Made by a program: the position numbers and the translations under genes
Part shown: positions 4,425 to 24,022 of the stretch, one piece after another
Position numbering within the stretch: the first letter of the stretch is position 1
How the letters are laid out: every line of letters begins with the position of its first letter
Notes under the pieces: generated by a model
Databases searched by the model: none
Told to the model about the DNA's origin: nothing
What the model saw: only the letters and a program-made list of their open reading frames with translations
IMG/VR virus record: IMGVR_UViG_3300016667_000484
Coordinates: 64,001 to 128,000 of that record
Strand: one strand, 5' to 3'
Origin: a virus
Taxonomy: Duplodnaviria; Heunggongvirae; Uroviricota; Caudoviricetes
Length of the DNA: 64,000 nucleotides

Positions 4425-5609
4425 TTATTTGTTGTTGGTTTTCTCATCATGATGTGCTTTAGCAGCTTCCATCGAATCGAATTCCTTGAAGTACTTTCGA
4501 TCAGGAGTGTGCACTGCGTAGGTTGCCTTCTTTGGCCACTTGTTGTAGATCTTAGTGATGCGAAGATCTGAAGCTTCGTTGATCTCGACTTCTTCCTTAA
4601 CAGCAGCTTTCTTTGCTGCTGCTTTAGCTTCTGCTGCTTCACGCTTTTTACGATCGGCATCCGCAATCTTATTCAACTGCTTTTCCTTCTTCATAGCAGC
4701 TTTCCAATATGTGTCACGCCAATCCTCTTGAACAACTTCTTCGCCAAAGCGCTTCTTGCCGTGTACTTCTTGAGAAACCTTGTTCACAATATCACGACGG
4801 TTGTCAAGCTTCTCACGGTACTTAACAGACTCTGGACTATTTACGGCGCTCTTCTTAGGACGTCCAGTCTTAGTGTACTTTGAAGGATCACGTGGTCTCT
4901 CGTATTTACCACGACTGGTGAAACGATCAACGACGTCTTGACCACCCTTTTCAACATAGCGCTTCTTCAGTTCAGTTGAGATTTCGTCGATCTGTTCGAC
5001 TTCTTCACGAGCCATGACCTTAGCCTTTGCTTTGTCGGCAGGATAAGTACCAAGCTTCTTGTTCGCGACTGAGATGCCCTGATTGCGATTGCCTACACGA
5101 CGAGCAGCATCATCACGCTCTTTCTTGTCCATTGCCATACCGCCATAGGTTCTAATATTTTTCTCAGCAGTGGTGCGGTCCTTCATAGCAGCCTTTTTGT
5201 CTGCACGGGACTTGTCAATGTAGTTACGAAGAGTTGATGCCGAGACTTCATCGAGTTCGATCTCTTCTTTCACTTCAATCTTGTGTGGATACTTACCTGC
5301 GTGCTTAACTGCCCATGCCTTCGCAGCATCAACAGTTTTGTGCGTGCCGTGATGATAAGAGTGGTCCCAAACGTTGTTTCCTACATCTTGCGAAACACCA
5401 TACTCACCATTTTTGCGCTTAGACACGATGTAGTGATTTGGTTTTTCTTCGTTGAGTCGACGTGCTTGTTCTGCTTCTGCAAGGCGAACGAAGTTCTTAG
5501 CACGAACGTGGGCTGATTCGTTCAATCCTACTGCGCCGTTACGCTGACGACGATAGAAAGCGATCGCCTCGGCAAGTTGCTGATTTGTGTATTGTGAAAA
5601 GTCTGTCAT
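4425..5609 (-). CDS. Modular putative internal head protein
   Basis: Basic modules separated by EEIELDEVS, EEVEQIDEIS, EEVEINEAS spacers. Confidence 0.6.
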   Translation of the reverse strand: MTDFSQYTNQQLAEAIAFYRRQRNGAVGLNESAHVRAKNFVRLAEAEQARRLNEEKPNHYIVSKRKNGEYGVSQDVGNNVWDHSYHHGTHKTVDAAKAWAVKHAGKYPHKIEVKEEIELDEVSASTLRNYIDKSRADKKAAMKDRTTAEKNIRTYGGMAMDKKERDDAARRVGNRNQGISVANKKLGTYPADKAKAKVMAREEVEQIDEISTELKKRYVEKGGQDVVDRFTSRGKYERPRDPSKYTKTGRPKKSAVNSPESVKYREKLDNRRDIVNKVSQEVHGKKRFGEEVVQEDWRDTYWKAAMKKEKQLNKIADADRKKREAAEAKAAAKKAAVKEEVEINEASDLRITKIYNKWPKKATYAVHTPDRKYFKEFDSMEAAKAHHDEKTNNK

Positions 5610-5618
5610 GATTTCCTC

Positions 5619-6284
5619 TTATTCTTCTTCTGAGTTAAAATCTTCTTCGTCGGCCATCTCTGACTCCATGTAGTCAGCAGCGCCAGTGATATAGTCGGTT
5701 GCTAGAACGATGTCTGCTACGATGTGCCCTGGAAGTTCATCGTCATCATCGAGAAGAGTGTGTAGTCTCTTCGCGGCCGCGATCATCATTCTTAGCTGGG
5801 ACTTAGCCATACCACCTTCTTGGCCATATTCGCCGTCGTCTTTAGCTTCACCATACATCTGTTTATACTTTTTCGTATACTGAGACTCTCTGGTTTTTGC
5901 AGTGGCGTCACCTGGTGCTGGCTTATACGCAGAAGGATCATCCCAGCTCTTGTTAGCACCTTTCTTAAAGTGTGCTGCGCGAGCCTTGTCAGTGGAGTTG
6001 TTCCCTGTGCTGTACTTAGAAGATAGCTCGGATTCTCTCAGGTCTTTGTCAGCGGTGTGATAGGTTTTGCCCTTAGTGATATACGAGTTCACTCTCGCCA
6101 TCGCCCATTGTTGTGGAGTTGTGCCGGGACGATGACCGGTGCGCCACGCGGCCATACCTCGGTTATAAACCTTTCTCAGAGTGCCGACCGAAATACCAGA
6201 AGCTTCGGCCTTTTTGGCCAAGCCGGTTTCGGCTGCTTCACTTATGTCAGTCGCTTCAGCTATGATTTGCTTGAATGTTTTCAT
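5619..6284 (-). CDS. Putative internal head protein (DUF5824-like) with capsid-targeting-like N-terminus
   Basis: MKTFKQIIAEA start; LAKKAEASGIS...VYNRGMAAWRTGHRPG..QQWAMARVNS domain. Confidence 0.65.
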   Translation of the reverse strand: MKTFKQIIAEATDISEAAETGLAKKAEASGISVGTLRKVYNRGMAAWRTGHRPGTTPQQWAMARVNSYITKGKTYHTADKDLRESELSSKYSTGNNSTDKARAAHFKKGANKSWDDPSAYKPAPGDATAKTRESQYTKKYKQMYGEAKDDGEYGQEGGMAKSQLRMMIAAAKRLHTLLDDDDELPGHIVADIVLATDYITGAADYMESEMADEEDFNSEEE

Positions 6285-6293
6285 GGTTTCCTC

Positions 6294-9200
6294 TTAGTAC
6301 TTAACGACTGGATTCGGAGTGGAGAAGTTCTTCTTGCGCATGATGGTCTTTGCCACGATGTCGATCTCATCATTCTTCGAGTCGTACTTGACTACTACCG
6401 GCATGTTGAGGTCTGACTGTAGATCCTTGACAACCATCTCTGCACCTGGCTTGTCTTTGAGAGGATTGCCATGCTTAGCGTAGATCTTTTTGATCAAATC
6501 AGCGAGTTCCTTGAGCTTGATCTTAGGCGAGTTACGATCGTCATTCATGCGCTCACCGAAGTGCTTAGTGAACTCAAAGTCGATCTTGAACTTCTCGAAC
6601 ATGCGGTCGACAAACTTCTCGAAGTCCTTCATCTTTGATGCAGTGATCTCGGTGTCCTCTGCTTCCTCTTTGATCGTATGTTCAAATGCCAGTCCAACTC
6701 GAGTGTGCTTCTTCTCGTCGGCGTACTTTTTCAGGAACTTCTTAGTCAGATCAGGGACTGCATTGGTTTCATCTGGCACAGTCTTCTTGAAGTCATCAGC
6801 ATCGACGTCGCCATCAAGGTCGGTGTCGACATGCATCAAGGCGTCTTTACCAATGTGCTTGAATGGAACACCGATTCCGAGCTCATGCTTGAATGGCTTC
6901 TTGTCTTCGCTGACTTGAACAACACTCGTCTTATACTTGTTTGGGTGTCTCTCAAGTTCTTTAGCGAGTTGTGTTGCCTTTTCGTGAGACATCGGTGTAG
7001 CATGCTTGATGTGCTTCTTGATCAGGTGTGCTGATGGTGTAGTATGCACGTCAAGGTAATGATCTTGCTTGTAGAATGGACTTTTGCCCTTCACCACATA
7101 CTTCTTTTCTTCAAACATATCTTCGAACGCTTCGTTGATACCATCAGTGATCTTTGGCTTAGTGACTACACCCTTTTCGCCTGGAGTAGCAGCTTTATAG
7201 TTTGAGACCAACTTGTCAGTACCTTCGAATCCAGCACCATAGCTCTCGTGATAGGTGCGGAACTTCTTCATCTTCTGATCGCGAGAAGTCACCGCACGAA
7301 GATGACGCTCGATGTGAGCATCAATCTCTGCTTTCGTGTTGACGTCCTTTGGCGCAGGAGGAATCACTGGTGCAGGGATCTCAGCTTGGTGCATGCTCTT
7401 CGGAGTAGATCTTCCAAGTGCTGGACCGGGAATGACTACGGCTTCACCGAGGTGACCATGTGAAGCGATCCATGCTTTCGCAGCTGGGCTCTTTGGCGGG
7501 TTCTTCGCCCAGGTCGAGATCTTCTTGTAGGTGTTCAGAATGGCTGGTTCAACTTCTTGTCCGGCCGAGTTGTCGATGATGTACATGTTGTTGCCAAAGT
7601 ACTGCTGGAACTTGCCGATGTTGTGCTGCACTTCTGACCACATAGTCTCGACTTCGCTGTCTGGCAGAGAGCGAGTGCGCATTTTGTTACGAGTCTTAGC
7701 TGTATCGAGGCTGGTGTTAACAAAGATCATCGCTACGTCGTAGCCGATCTTCTTTAGCTTCTCAGCTTGCTTCTCGATCTTTCCAAAGTCTTTACCAGTT
7801 CCGTCGATCACGAGACCAAGGCGGCCATGAACTGCGTGGTCCATGAGCTTACCAGTCAAAGCTTTTGCTTGACCACGAATCTCTTGACCTTTTGGCGAGT
7901 AGATGTTCTCAGGTGTTGATGCCATTCCCGCTTTCGCTAGAGCACGTTCGAACGCGTCATCGGAGTTGATGACTTTCATACCAAGTGCGGTGAGTGCGGT
8001 TCTACCGACGATGAATGACTTGCCAGAACCTGGACCACCAGCAAGGAAAACTGCCTTGAAGATAGATGGATCGTGTACACCTTCGTTCAGTGCTACTTCA
8101 AACGCCTCGTTGATGTGATTCGTCACGAGAGCGTTGACGTTGTCGAATCCGGCTTGCTCTTCAGTCTTCGATTCACTCAGGTTGTACATACCTTCGATGA
8201 ACGCCTCGAACACTACTTCAAAGTCAAGGCCTGACTTCTGTGACTTCTCGATAAGAGCCATCGCGATCTTGATGTCCTCAGGCGACTCGTCAAATGCCTC
8301 TTGAATCACATTGAGGAGTTCAGTGTCAGTTTGTTCATGATGCATGATGTTGCGGAACGCACGGAAGCGACGATCAAGCTTCGCTTTGTTGTGCTTGTCG
8401 AACACCATGTGATAACGTGGCTTTGTGCCTTCTTCAAGGAAAGCTTCAAACGATTCATTGATGTGGCTATTAGGTTGACCTGGGACGTGATGACCGGTTC
8501 CACCTTGGCCACCTTTGCTCAAGAGAGCAACACGAGCGAACTCAGCTTTACGTACAGTAGGAAGGAGTCGTGCTGCGATCTTCGCGATCGATCTTTTTCT
8601 TTCCTCGACACGCTTGTCGATCATGATCTTTTCTGCTGGCGAGAGGGATGCGTACTCGAGACCCTTTTCACCTGCTACTTTTCTACGAATGATCTGAATA
8701 GCTTTCTTACGAGCACGACCCTCAAGGTGCTTTTGGTCAGCGATGCGAGTACGTAGGCGCTCGCGGGACATCTCCATCTTTTTCTCGAGACGACGAGCTG
8801 TGATAGCACGCTTCATTCTCTCAGCGACGCTAAGCACGTGTTCTTCTAGTTCTACTTCTTCTGCCAATTTCATACCACCTCTAACTAGGCTATACACTTC
8901 GTCTGCGTGCTTCTGTAGGTTCTTTGGAAGACCGGTTTTGAATTTTGCTGAGTCACCTTTCGATGCGGCTTCTCTCATCTTTGACGCTGACATACCTTCA
9001 ACGCCTTCGGCATCAGGATCTCTCTCACCAGCAGAAACGACTTCGATCGACTTGAAGTTGAACTCCTTGCCGTTATACTTCTTTAGTAGTGTATCGAATT
9101 CTTGTACACGATCAGCACCGGCGACAAACACCACGTTATCGAAGTGACCGGTCAGAGACTTCATCACGTCGATTAGGGTTTTTGCTGGTGCTTTTTGGAT

Positions 9201-16749: not shown

Positions 16750-16986
16750 GCTTTCTTTGGCCATACGCTCACAATCTTTGAGAACAGCGACGATGCCTTG
16801 CTGAGCAAGTTCAGTGGGGATCACCCACTTCGTATGGTAGTCACGTTCGTCTGCACTCAAGACCCACGAGTCTTCGAAGAGGCCAGTGTTCTCGAGCGAC
16901 AAGCCGCGAGCGTTGATCGAGATGGCTTCATTCGTCGACGGATCGACCATCATCAGAGAACCGGCGATCATGATGCACTGGAGCAT
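16744..16986 (-). CDS. Hypothetical early protein
   Basis: ATG right after promoter/RBS cassette copy 2. Confidence 0.55.
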   Translation of the reverse strand: MLQCIMIAGSLMMVDPSTNEAISINARGLSLENTGLFEDSWVLSADERDYHTKWVIPTELAQQGIVAVLKDCERMAKESG

Positions 16987-16990
16987 GTTC

Positions 16991-17045
16991 TTTCCTCTTT
17001 GCTTCTACTAGTACAATATAAGCAAAAATTTTCGGAATGTCAACC
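16991..17045 (-). promoter_or_regulatory. Sigma70-type early promoter plus leader cassette (copy 2)
   Basis: TTGACA-17-TATATT then identical 21-nt CTAGTAGAAGCAAAGAGGAAA. Confidence 0.75.
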
Positions 17046-17063
17046 AGCTGAGCACACTTTTCG

Positions 17064-17071
17064 TATAAATA
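17064..17071 (+). promoter_or_regulatory. T4-type late promoter TATAAATA (plus strand)
   Basis: Exact consensus upstream of the plus-strand endonuclease. Confidence 0.75.
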
Positions 17072-17101
17072 ATCGTATGGGTAGGAAACTTGGAGTCGGT
17101 C

Positions 17102-17749
17102 ATGGTGCAGCATTCACCGTATACCTATTTAATAGGTTGGTCCAAACACGATCTTTGGTACTATGGTGTGCAGTATAACTCAAAAGCTCGACCCGAGAAT
17201 CTTTGGACTACTTATTTTACCTCTTCTAAGATAGTCAAACTTACGAGAGAAAAATGCGGAGAACCCGATGTAGTTGAAGTGCGAAAAACCTTTAGCAACA
17301 AAGACGCTGCGAGGCTATGGGAACACAAAGTCTTGCGTCGAATTGGAGCAAGAAAGTCTAAACGGTGGCTGAACCAAACTGACAATCTGCATCATTATCC
17401 TAGAATCCCAAAGTCACCTTGGAATAAGGGTAGAACCCTATCTGCTGAGCAAAAAGAAAAGATTCGCGACAGTCTTAAAGGCCGGACTCTATCAGGTGAA
17501 CACCGAGCAAAGATGTCTGCTGCACATCAAAGACGCGACAAGTCTATATCAGATGAAACTAGACTGAAGATGAGTAAAGCAAAGGCCGGAAAGAATACTG
17601 CGCCTGAGACAAAGGAAAAGATGCGTCTTGCAAAACTTGGTGTAAAGAAAGATCCGGTTAAATGCCCTTACTGTGACAAATCTGTAGCACCACATCTTTT
17701 TGATCGCTGGCACAACAAAAACTGCAAATATTTTACACCGATTACATAG
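17102..17749 (+). mobile_element. Free-standing GIY-YIG homing endonuclease with NUMOD3 repeats (opposite strand)
   Basis: YTYLI...WYYG, repeated KGRTLSAEQKEKI/KGRTLSGEHRAKMS NUMOD3-like motifs; RBS GGAG. Confidence 0.8.
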
Positions 17750-17766
17750 AATCATGATAAATAGCT

Positions 17767-17938
17767 GTATGGGTGCGTGATATCACGTCTAAACAACGTA
17801 GAGGCAAGTGTGATAGCTTACAAAATCACAGATGGAACAGTTGGGGTCGCATCAAGTATGCCGGTGGGGTTCCGCCCAACATTCACGTATCGTGCACGGT
17901 GAAATGCCGCTCAATTAAGTTTGGGCGGCATTTCCTTT
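17767..17938 (+). ncRNA. Candidate structured non-coding RNA
   Basis: Late-promoter-like GATAAATA upstream, nested stems with G-U pairs, terminal GC-rich hairpin. Confidence 0.45.
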
Positions 17939-17939
17939 T
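17901..17939. terminator. Hairpin terminator between convergent transcripts
   Basis: GAAATGCCGC/GCGGCATTTC stem followed by CTTTT. Confidence 0.7.
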
Positions 17940-18121
17940 GCATGATCGGGATACACCAGAGTGAAGAACGGCGGAGTGAATCCATCGAACCCCGATCCCA
18001 AGTTCAGTGAACGACACAGCTTCACTGCTTCATCCTTATCTTCTCTCGTAGTCACTACCAGCTCAGAACCTTTCTCGATGATCTCGAAGAGGTTCTTTTT
18101 TTCGTTCACTCGGTAACCCAT
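17915..18121 (-). CDS. Small conserved hypothetical protein downstream of gp41
   Basis: LNLGSGFDGFTPPFF motif; RBS GGAG. Confidence 0.55.
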   Translation of the reverse strand: MGYRVNEKKNLFEIIEKGSELVVTTREDKDEAVKLCRSLNLGSGFDGFTPPFFTLVYPDHAKGNAAQT

Positions 18122-18133
18122 GATGTAGTCTCC

Positions 18134-19567
18134 TTAGTTGAAGTTGCCAAAGTTCGGTTTCTTTTTCTTGAAGCTGCTAAGCTTCCGTGGTTCGAAGTCG
18201 TCGTCTTGCATCATGCCCGAGTTGTCAAAGATGGGATGATCTTCTTGCTCGATCTGTTTGGTTCCACCCGTCAAACCTTCTTGAGCAGACTCTTCAGCAT
18301 CAAACAGCTTCATCTTCGAACGATCGATTCCTATGATGAAACGCTTCGGGCTGTCGATGCTTCCCCAACGATTCTTCAGCTGCTTGACCATGAGTTGCCC
18401 GATCTTTTCGAGTTCTTCGGTCGAGATGAGAGCGAACATGAAGTCTGCAGTTGCTGGAAGGCCAAACGACTCTGAGGTGTCGGTGATCTCGACATCAGAG
18501 TTGCCATAACCCGAGCGAGTCGTCTGAGTAGCTGACATGACCGGAACGTTGAATTCCATCGCCAAGCCACGAAGTTCTTCTGCGATCGCTTTGATCAAGG
18601 TGTACGAGTTGATATTCGCACCATGTTTAAGCCGAGACGACATACAGATGTTGAGATAGTCGATGAAGATGATGTCGGGAATGAAGTTTTTCTTGAGCTT
18701 CAGTTCGTTCAGCAAGTGTCGGAAGTGATTTGCACCTGCCGAACCAGTCGGGTATTCCTTGACGATCAGTTTGCCTGAGGTTCTACTCTTCACACGATCG
18801 ATCTTCTTGCGATAAGACTCGAGTGGCATGAGACGCAGGTCATCGAGAGTAACATCGAGAAGGTTGGCGTCGATACGTTCTGCGATGCGTTCTTCGGCCA
18901 TCTCCATCGTGATGTACAGGACGTTCTTACCTGACATCAACGACGCCGCAGCACAGTGAGTCATAAACAGAGTCTTACCTACGCCCGTACCCGCAAGAGC
19001 AACTGACAGCGACTTCTTACTCAAGCCACCCTTCGTGATCTTGTTGAAGTAATCGAGGTCGAACTCAAGTTTTTCTTCGAGACGATGATAGAACTCAAAA
19101 CGTTCATCGGAGTTCTCAAGGAAGTCGTGACCAACGTTCGTGTCGAAGCTTACGCCAAGCGCATCACTCAAGAGCTGAGGGATCGCACCTTTGTCGAGTT
19201 CCTTGACCTTACCATCGAGAACGAGGATCGATTGACGAACTGCGTTGTAGATCGCTTTGTCCTGACAGAACTTTTCAGTCGTGTCGACAAGCCAAGCTTG
19301 GTCAGTCTTCTCATCATAAGTCAAGCCATCTAGCGCAGATGTGACTTGTTTGTAACGTTCTTCGTTCAGGCTGTTCGATTCATCAATCGCGATACGAAGT
19401 GCAGTCTTGGTCGGTAAACCGTTATATTGATCGATGTAGCTCTTGATCGCGTTGTAGAGGAACTTGTCATTCTGATCCTCGAAGTACTCGTCTTTTAGAA
19501 ACGGAAGGACTGTTCTTACATAGCTTTCATTGTGGATCATCCCCGCTAGGATTGTCTGTTCGATCAT
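18134..19567 (-). CDS. gp41: Replicative DNA helicase
   Basis: Walker A LAGTGVGKT, YITMEMAEERIAER, ISESFGLPATAD-like motif. Confidence 0.97.
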   Translation of the reverse strand: MIEQTILAGMIHNESYVRTVLPFLKDEYFEDQNDKFLYNAIKSYIDQYNGLPTKTALRIAIDESNSLNEERYKQVTSALDGLTYDEKTDQAWLVDTTEKFCQDKAIYNAVRQSILVLDGKVKELDKGAIPQLLSDALGVSFDTNVGHDFLENSDERFEFYHRLEEKLEFDLDYFNKITKGGLSKKSLSVALAGTGVGKTLFMTHCAAASLMSGKNVLYITMEMAEERIAERIDANLLDVTLDDLRLMPLESYRKKIDRVKSRTSGKLIVKEYPTGSAGANHFRHLLNELKLKKNFIPDIIFIDYLNICMSSRLKHGANINSYTLIKAIAEELRGLAMEFNVPVMSATQTTRSGYGNSDVEITDTSESFGLPATADFMFALISTEELEKIGQLMVKQLKNRWGSIDSPKRFIIGIDRSKMKLFDAEESAQEGLTGGTKQIEQEDHPIFDNSGMMQDDDFEPRKLSSFKKKKPNFGNFN

Positions 19568-24014: not shown

Positions 24015-24022
24015 TATTTATA
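24015..24022 (-). promoter_or_regulatory. T4-type late promoter TATAAATA
   Basis: Exact consensus upstream of hsp20. Confidence 0.75.

Follow-up and report, generated by a model that had tools for sequence, protein, structure and literature searches.

A 170-nt stretch of a T4-like myovirus genome, flanked by a homing endonuclease gene and a 68-aa open reading frame (ORF), is very likely a real RNA gene. It has its own promoter at the 5' end of a multi-helix structure, its own terminator, and downstream genes that are convergent with it, and more than 50 distinct homologues on freshwater and marine phage contigs retain the same fold. We think it probable, taking the statement as a whole, that the gene stands alone and encodes a stable, structured non-coding RNA of ~130–165 nt which acts in trans by binding a partner. 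The DNA analysed (the window) is a 64,000-nt stretch of a 195-kb virus record, and the genes around the RNA are encoded on its minus strand: DNA polymerase, UvsX, a DUF4031 ORF, a gp41-type helicase and the 68-aa ORF. The 215-aa homing endonuclease is the sole convincing plus-strand gene of the region. The coordinates of all features are collected in Table 1.

Table 1. Features of the RNA gene and its surroundings, in window coordinates.
Feature	Position	Strand	Remarks
Canonical T4-type late promoter box TATAAATA	17064..17071	+	Originally served the RNA gene; the endonuclease mRNA is now made from it
Upstream copy of the first bases of the RNA, ATCGTATGGGT	17072..17082	+	Forms the left border of the insertion and the endonuclease mRNA leader; same sequence at 17764-17774 and in endonuclease-free alleles
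Probable Seg-like homing endonuclease gene	17102..17749	+	215 aa from ATG; GIY-YIG-type motifs YTY...YYG; NUMOD3
Variant late promoter box GATAAATA	17756..17763	+	Carried by the cassette, 8 nt ahead of P1
Inferred primary transcript, 167 nt	17769..17935	+	A17769 lies 6 nt after the box; 3' end is 6 nt past the terminator's G+C stem
Folded core, four-way junction P1-P4	17772..17891	+	RNAalifold unaided; covariance model R1, 147 bits, E = 4e-36
P1 closing stem	17772-17779/17884-17891, plus A17780-U17883	+	8 bp; G-U at 17773-17890 and 17775-17888
P2 hairpin	17785-88/17796-99	+	
Junction strand P2-P3, AGAGGCAAG	17800..17808	+	Purine-rich; invariant also in members from the pattern not requiring AGAGGCAAG
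P3 hairpin	17809-14/17825-30	+	
Junction strand P3-P4 with GGAA	17831..17839	+	GGAA invariant in 41/41 rows of alignment A6; required by no search pattern
P4 arm	17840-45/17875-80	+	Leads to P4a and P4b through a three-way junction
P4a	17849-52/17858-61	+	
P4b	17862-64/17872-74	+	7-nt loop UGGGGUU (17865-71) invariant
Intrinsic terminator	17901..17939	+	14-pair hairpin (17901-17934, terminator scan) and U-rich tail
Convergent 68-aa ORF	17915..18121	-	Ends within the RNA terminator; common, non-obligate neighbour
gp41-type replicative helicase	18134..19567	-	Constant convergent neighbour of the RNA; tblastn to T4-like phages, <=59% identity

The plus strand of the element folds with an energy of -60.6 kcal/mol (z = -3.47), a value that none of 200 shuffled sequences equalled, and the minus strand folds more weakly (-49.5 kcal/mol). 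RNAalifold, applied to a MAFFT alignment alone, returned the same helices as folding of the single sequence. A sequence-only reading of the window had already drawn the helices and hairpins, the promoter variant and the terminator, and all of these were found at the positions it had given. It had also taken the G-U pairs to favour the plus strand, and the family bears this out: the two G-U pairs of P1 are present in all 33 rows of alignment A4 and change to G-C in the marine members. On the opposite strand these pairs would be C-A mismatches, which fixes the plus strand as the one that folds.

Covariation was assessed in three nested sets of homologues. The smallest (A2, 13 sequences), which was not aligned to the covariance model, has 96.5% of its cells paired and double changes at 13 pairs, compared with 4.3 +/- 1.4 in shuffled alignments and 1–5 when the structure was slid along the sequence. 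The two larger sets were aligned to the model, a procedure that leans towards the fold, and gave the same outcome: A4 (39 sequences) has 98.2% of cells paired and 103 double-change cells against 26 +/- 4 in shuffles, while A6 (41 diverse sequences) has 93.4% of cells paired and both-side changes at 22 of its 31 pairs, compared with 13.5 +/- 1.6 pairs in shuffles and 3–8 in slid controls. Double-change cells in A6 number 193 (54 +/- 9 in shuffles), and every pair of P2, P4, P4a and P4b covaries. Covariation in collected homologues, to which the sequence-only reading had pointed as a check, thus favours the structure, with double changes above shuffled controls in all three sets and above slid controls in A2 and A6. 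At the level of the aligned sequences, all helices are shown to be maintained through compensating changes. A conserved DNA element with no functional RNA, whether a site of homing or recombination or a terminator working in both directions, would account for the targeting of this site by the endonuclease and for the hairpin at 17901-17934 between convergent units, but it is highly improbable, as it leaves unexplained why six helices are kept by compensating changes, why the G-U pairs are strand-specific and why promoter and terminator are conserved.

The same alignments settle the register of the closing stem. Two alternative registers had been taken in the earlier reading to suggest a switch. 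The second (17773-17782/17888-17897) can be drawn in the window; its sequence is absent from the clades of L022, L030 and L031 and from all marine members, and the compensating changes seen in L020 (C-G to U-A) and L028 (G-C to A-U) fit the first register only, so the two-register switch has been abandoned. A crossing pair, GGAAC/GUUCC, was considered and rejected: it shows no double changes, 7–12 of the 41 rows break its outer pairs, and it cannot form together with P4b, which does covary. Mutual information among the unpaired columns detected clade effects only. As a separate observation, the L020/L026 core differs from its relatives almost solely by C-to-T and G-to-A transitions, several of which convert G-C pairs to G-U or A-U in P1, P4 and the terminator.

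The nucleotides that do not change are the 5' GGGUGCGUG, (A)AGAGGCAAGUGU, GGAA, the loop UGGGGUU and CACG. The family was collected with two search patterns, and some of these motifs were required by one of them, each being invariant in the set found with the other pattern as well. The invariant nucleotides line the junction and one small loop, and the distal loops L2 and L3 are free in both sequence and length. Such a combination of invariant junction and free distal loops typifies RNAs with a compact fold (aptamers, ribozymes, RNP scaffolds) rather than linear seeds, and for this reason we favour a partner-binding RNA. A search of the phage's own genome for antisense targets of AGAGGCAAGUGU gave seven near-matches, one of which is the RNA itself, against three for the reversed control, and none stands out.

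The family was assembled in several ways. A 21-nt core word retrieved eight IMG/VR loci, six of which have no endonuclease gene, and further freshwater and marine contigs were found through the neighbouring 68-aa protein and looser DNA patterns. Alignment A3 holds 33 distinct full cores, and a pattern covering the 5' half yielded at least 29 further cores, some of them repeating earlier ones. The covariance model R1, for which A3 and the proposed structure were the input, recovers every candidate (E between 1e-10 and 1e-36), identifies a single copy in the window's own genome, and gave no match in eight chance pattern loci (L032–L039). A blastn search with the window region and a marine member found no match among 50,697 phage records, and R1 found nothing beside gp41 of Stenotrophomonas phage DLP_6, Melnitz or Syn9; the RNA family was not seen in the cultured phages searched. 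A scan of bacterial and archaeal genomes produced one chance match in a coding region, without an R1 match. Its members, present as one copy per genome, are confined to a clade of uncultured T4-like phages. The gp41 gene adjoins the RNA in every locus with sufficient sequence, and the RNA is convergent with gp41 and UvsX in 20 + 24 loci, which are all those examined.

Transcription of the element would begin at a promoter of the T4 late type. TATAAATA occurs 17 times in the window, where 0.9 copies are expected by chance (a 19-fold enrichment), and 16 of the 17 lie on the gene strand, the copy at 17064 being the only one on the plus strand. In all 31 endonuclease-free alleles TATAAATA stands 6 or 8 nt ahead of the GGUG of P1, and GATAAATA or AATAAATA precedes P1 in all six endonuclease-bearing alleles. 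The position of a gp55-type late promoter predicts a start 0–2 nt ahead of P1; T4 late transcripts start ~6 nt after the late promoter box. Here, 'late' refers to the promoter type alone. We also observed that TATAAATA precedes some non-structural genes of the window (e.g. at 24015 and 27602), and in this phage 'late' may cover a middle class. At the other end, an A-rich linker connects the folded core to the terminator, which is found at this place in every family member, has a stem with compensating changes among relatives, and contributes its 3' half as the last codons of the convergent 68-aa ORF.

This arrangement bears on a possible role in cis, in which the core would sense a ligand or protein and set the extent of late read-through antisense into the small ORF, gp41 and uvsX. 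The conserved junction is aptamer-like, an intrinsic terminator follows it directly, and in every locus the transcript runs towards the helicase operon. However, there is no conserved antiterminator, terminator stems and linkers change freely against a fixed core, the terminator has no overlap with the 3' strand of P1, and register 2, the only candidate alternative pairing, is missing from most clades. We therefore regard riboswitch-like control in cis as unlikely. Assignment to a riboswitch class was likewise rejected, there being no same-strand gene downstream, a terminator and linker that vary independently of the core, and a second register that is unconserved.

Four RNA-labelled public runs were compared with positions 16900-18400, and three separate studies supplied contigs of the element, which as assembled contigs give neither strand nor level. 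The hot-spring metatranscriptome (X17) contains a 196-nt contig of depth 143 covering 17772-17935 without substitution, next to a helicase contig of depth 13. This contig also joins 17935 back to 17769, and its second copy differs at two letters. In a freshwater metatranscriptome (X19), a contig from an endonuclease-free relative ends at 17902 and continues into adapter sequence, and wastewater contigs (X18) cover 17775-17908. The joint in X17 fits template switching or ligation of two full-length molecules and hints at the ends of the transcript; as an observation in itself, it could have arisen by reverse-transcriptase template switching, ligation, library chemistry, or from concatemeric or circular RNA. 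The contigs hint at a discrete, abundant transcript spanning 17769-17935 in metatranscriptomes, with possible trimming near 17902-17908. A ribozyme, whether self-cleaving or of another kind, with the conserved junction as its catalytic core might be read into the head-to-tail joint and into the pairing of an invariant junction with variable peripheral loops. It is nevertheless very unlikely, since no known ribozyme family was matched even at E = 10, contigs cross the entire core uncut, and the ends that are joined are the promoter-predicted start and the terminator rather than an internal site. The suggestion made from the sequence that this is an independent late RNA outside Rfam is well supported by its promoter and terminator, by covariation and G-U pairs of the plus strand, and by the metatranscriptome contigs.

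The homing endonuclease next to the RNA is a separate matter. The protein matches PHROG 314 'homing endonuclease' (E = 2e-16) and, as its sole Pfam domain, NUMOD3 (E = 1.4e-8), and its GIY-YIG-type motifs align weakly with T4 SegB (E = 0.12); searches of PDB and NCBIfam with it gave no match. In endonuclease-free relatives the sequence ahead of TATAAATA matches window positions 17010-17082, that is, the region upstream of the endonuclease gene, from which we conclude that the window carries an insertion of ~692 bp, located at the 5' edge of the RNA gene. On its left it is preceded by TATAAATA and 11 nt from the start of the RNA gene; at its right end the cassette carries an altered second copy of these, GATAAATA plus GCTGTATGGGT. 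DNA contigs of a public run skip the cassette, joining 17074 to 17767 and 17082 to 17795. Among 37 distinct alleles with upstream sequence, six contain an endonuclease gene, always at the same site and 62–84% identical to that of the window, and 31 contain none. This is presence/absence polymorphism at one precise site among close relatives, as found for mobile insertions. On this comparison of alleles, the endonuclease gene is a later invader of the RNA gene and not the partner of the RNA. The Seg-like enzyme would home to the RNA gene at its conserved 5' edge, and the cassette would bring a duplicate promoter and the first ~11 nt with it, so that both genes could stay expressed. It would be a case of a homing endonuclease that lands in a non-coding RNA gene yet duplicates the promoter, so the host gene survives. 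In one relative (L042) the endonuclease, 62% identical to that of the window, is preceded by two plus-strand ORFs of 150 and 132 aa (-1682 to -112 relative to the RNA), and the cassette there is larger because of them.

The relatives also bear on the earlier proposal that the RNA is an endonuclease-associated guide or partner RNA of the HEARO/omega kind, and on the possibility that translation of an overlapping 63-aa ORF explains the conservation. The endonuclease gene does adjoin the RNA in the window, as the nuclease genes of IscB and TnpB systems adjoin their structured RNAs, and 63 codons are open there. However, most genomes keep the RNA without any nuclease (the 31 alleles above and the DNA contig joining 17074 to 17767), the enzyme is probably a protein-guided Seg-like homing endonuclease, with NUMOD3 DNA-binding motifs, and the Rfam HEARO model has no match in the window. 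The reading frame is broken by early stops in relatives, after only eight codons in L003, and the family keeps no ORF over the element. Both readings fail on this evidence, and we find either of them scarcely credible.

Phage tRNAs replace host RNAs attacked by defence nucleases, and the RNA could by analogy be an anti-defence decoy or replacement that mimics such a host RNA, its locus being spread or amplified by the endonuclease. T4 offers a parallel, with the GIY-YIG gene segB lying among tRNA and stable-RNA genes, and SegB is reported to amplify anti-defence tRNA loci (2026; PMC13096335). Against this, ARAGORN found no tRNA in the window, the RNA has no tRNA-like T-loop and matches no Rfam family of cellular RNAs, a late-type promoter is ill-suited to early defence, and most alleles have no endonuclease, which leaves a decoy improbable. 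A tRNA or tRNA-like RNA was also rejected as such, on the ARAGORN result and on the departure of the 7-nt loop UGGGGUU from the T-loop consensus.

Comparison with catalogued RNAs identified no relative. The Rfam search suggested in the sequence-only reading, which had recognised no family, agreed with it: there is no gathering-score match in the whole window and nothing over the element even at E <= 10. The loci of four relatives gave only sub-threshold noise against Rfam 15 (CsrC at 18 bits versus a threshold of 61, and miRNA models on the terminator). Resemblances to the loop E region of 5S rRNA, RNase P, SRP and the GUC of the hairpin ribozyme were rejected, as they fall on positions that vary within the family and are without Rfam support. 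The RNAs C and D of T4 (rnaC and rnaD, 'species 1 and 2') are stable, structured RNAs of 119–139 nt whose function is unexplained, and they are processed together with tRNAs, without a late promoter of their own. Like the RNA described here, they are small structured RNAs of a T4-type phage with a GIY-YIG Seg gene, segB, inside their cluster, but they lie within a tRNA cluster at another genomic position, rnaC ends in a tRNA-like T-arm, and R1 run with filters off found no match to either. The phi29 pRNA is a multi-helix phage RNA of ~120–170 nt that folds into a particle and works in complex with proteins; no RNA is needed for packaging of the T4 type. The RNA described here has no homology to pRNA, and pRNA needs covarying inter-molecular loop pairs, whereas the distal loops here vary freely. 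We found no paper describing the RNA in a literature search. Fremin et al., 2023 (PMC10690425) reported 8,495 candidate phage structured-RNA motifs from IMG/VR 3.0, orphans without function, which share with this RNA both their intergenic IMG/VR source and evidence from covariation but average 67 nt, compared with the ~120-nt core here. The RNA belongs to a family uncatalogued in Rfam 15 and may be among those unnamed motifs.

What the RNA does can be addressed with less assurance than its existence. The partner-binding mechanism is put forward tentatively: the RNA, folded into a particle, would work in trans and bind a specific partner, for which the best candidate is a protein involved in nucleic-acid metabolism of the phage or its host, a small ligand being less likely. 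A further step, and a doubtful one, is that this RNA founds a new functional class of late-made, trans-acting RNAs with an invariant G-rich junction core that binds a specific target; the target might come from the replication or recombination proteins of the adjacent UvsX-gp41 module, or might be a small molecule that signals in host immunity, for which the RNA would be a 'sponge'. T4-type phages, which rank among the most abundant viruses of lakes and oceans, have been studied more closely than any other model of gene control in phages, and to our knowledge their textbook gene set includes no conserved structured RNA gene beyond tRNAs and RNAs C and D. The RNA is widespread in uncultured freshwater and marine phages, at a fixed position beside the replication module. 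If the reading as a new functional class is true, T4-like aquatic phages would have an RNA-based layer of control that is absent from what is known of T4. With a promoter, a terminator, six covarying helices and few invariant nucleotides, the RNA is a clean target for biochemistry (probing, pull-downs, structure determination).

The surroundings of the gene show some further features. A near-consensus sigma-70-type promoter lies on the minus strand at 17043-17015 (TTGACA, 17 nt, TATATT; 11 of 12 matches), divergent from the late promoter of the RNA, and its TTGACA is also kept in relatives. It probably starts an early unit with the small minus-strand genes to the left, and since it does so just upstream, the RNA gene occupies a slot of its own between two leftward units. 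Homologues of the 68-aa ORF are present in ~14 of 24 further loci and missing in ~10. The protein has no match in Pfam, PHROG or PDB folds, and its structure model (pLDDT 72) contains three strands and a helix with a disordered tail. It was considered as the partner of the RNA and rejected, having no recognisable RNA-binding fold and a gene that is missing from those ~10 loci. Across the family (alignment A5, 62–72 aa) the tail motif LNLGxGFxGxTPxFF is invariant, and the gene directly follows gp41 in many relatives, not all; our guess is that the tail resembles a peptide by which the protein docks to a replisome protein. In L007 (2688-3116) an antisense frame of 142 codons is open over the RNA, as a run-through ahead of the true 72-aa gene; in the window this frame is closed. 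In the marine relative L137 (~5179-7108) the gp41 helicase match falls into two pieces ~630 nt apart, which suggests an insertion in the helicase gene (an intein, an intron or an endonuclease gene).
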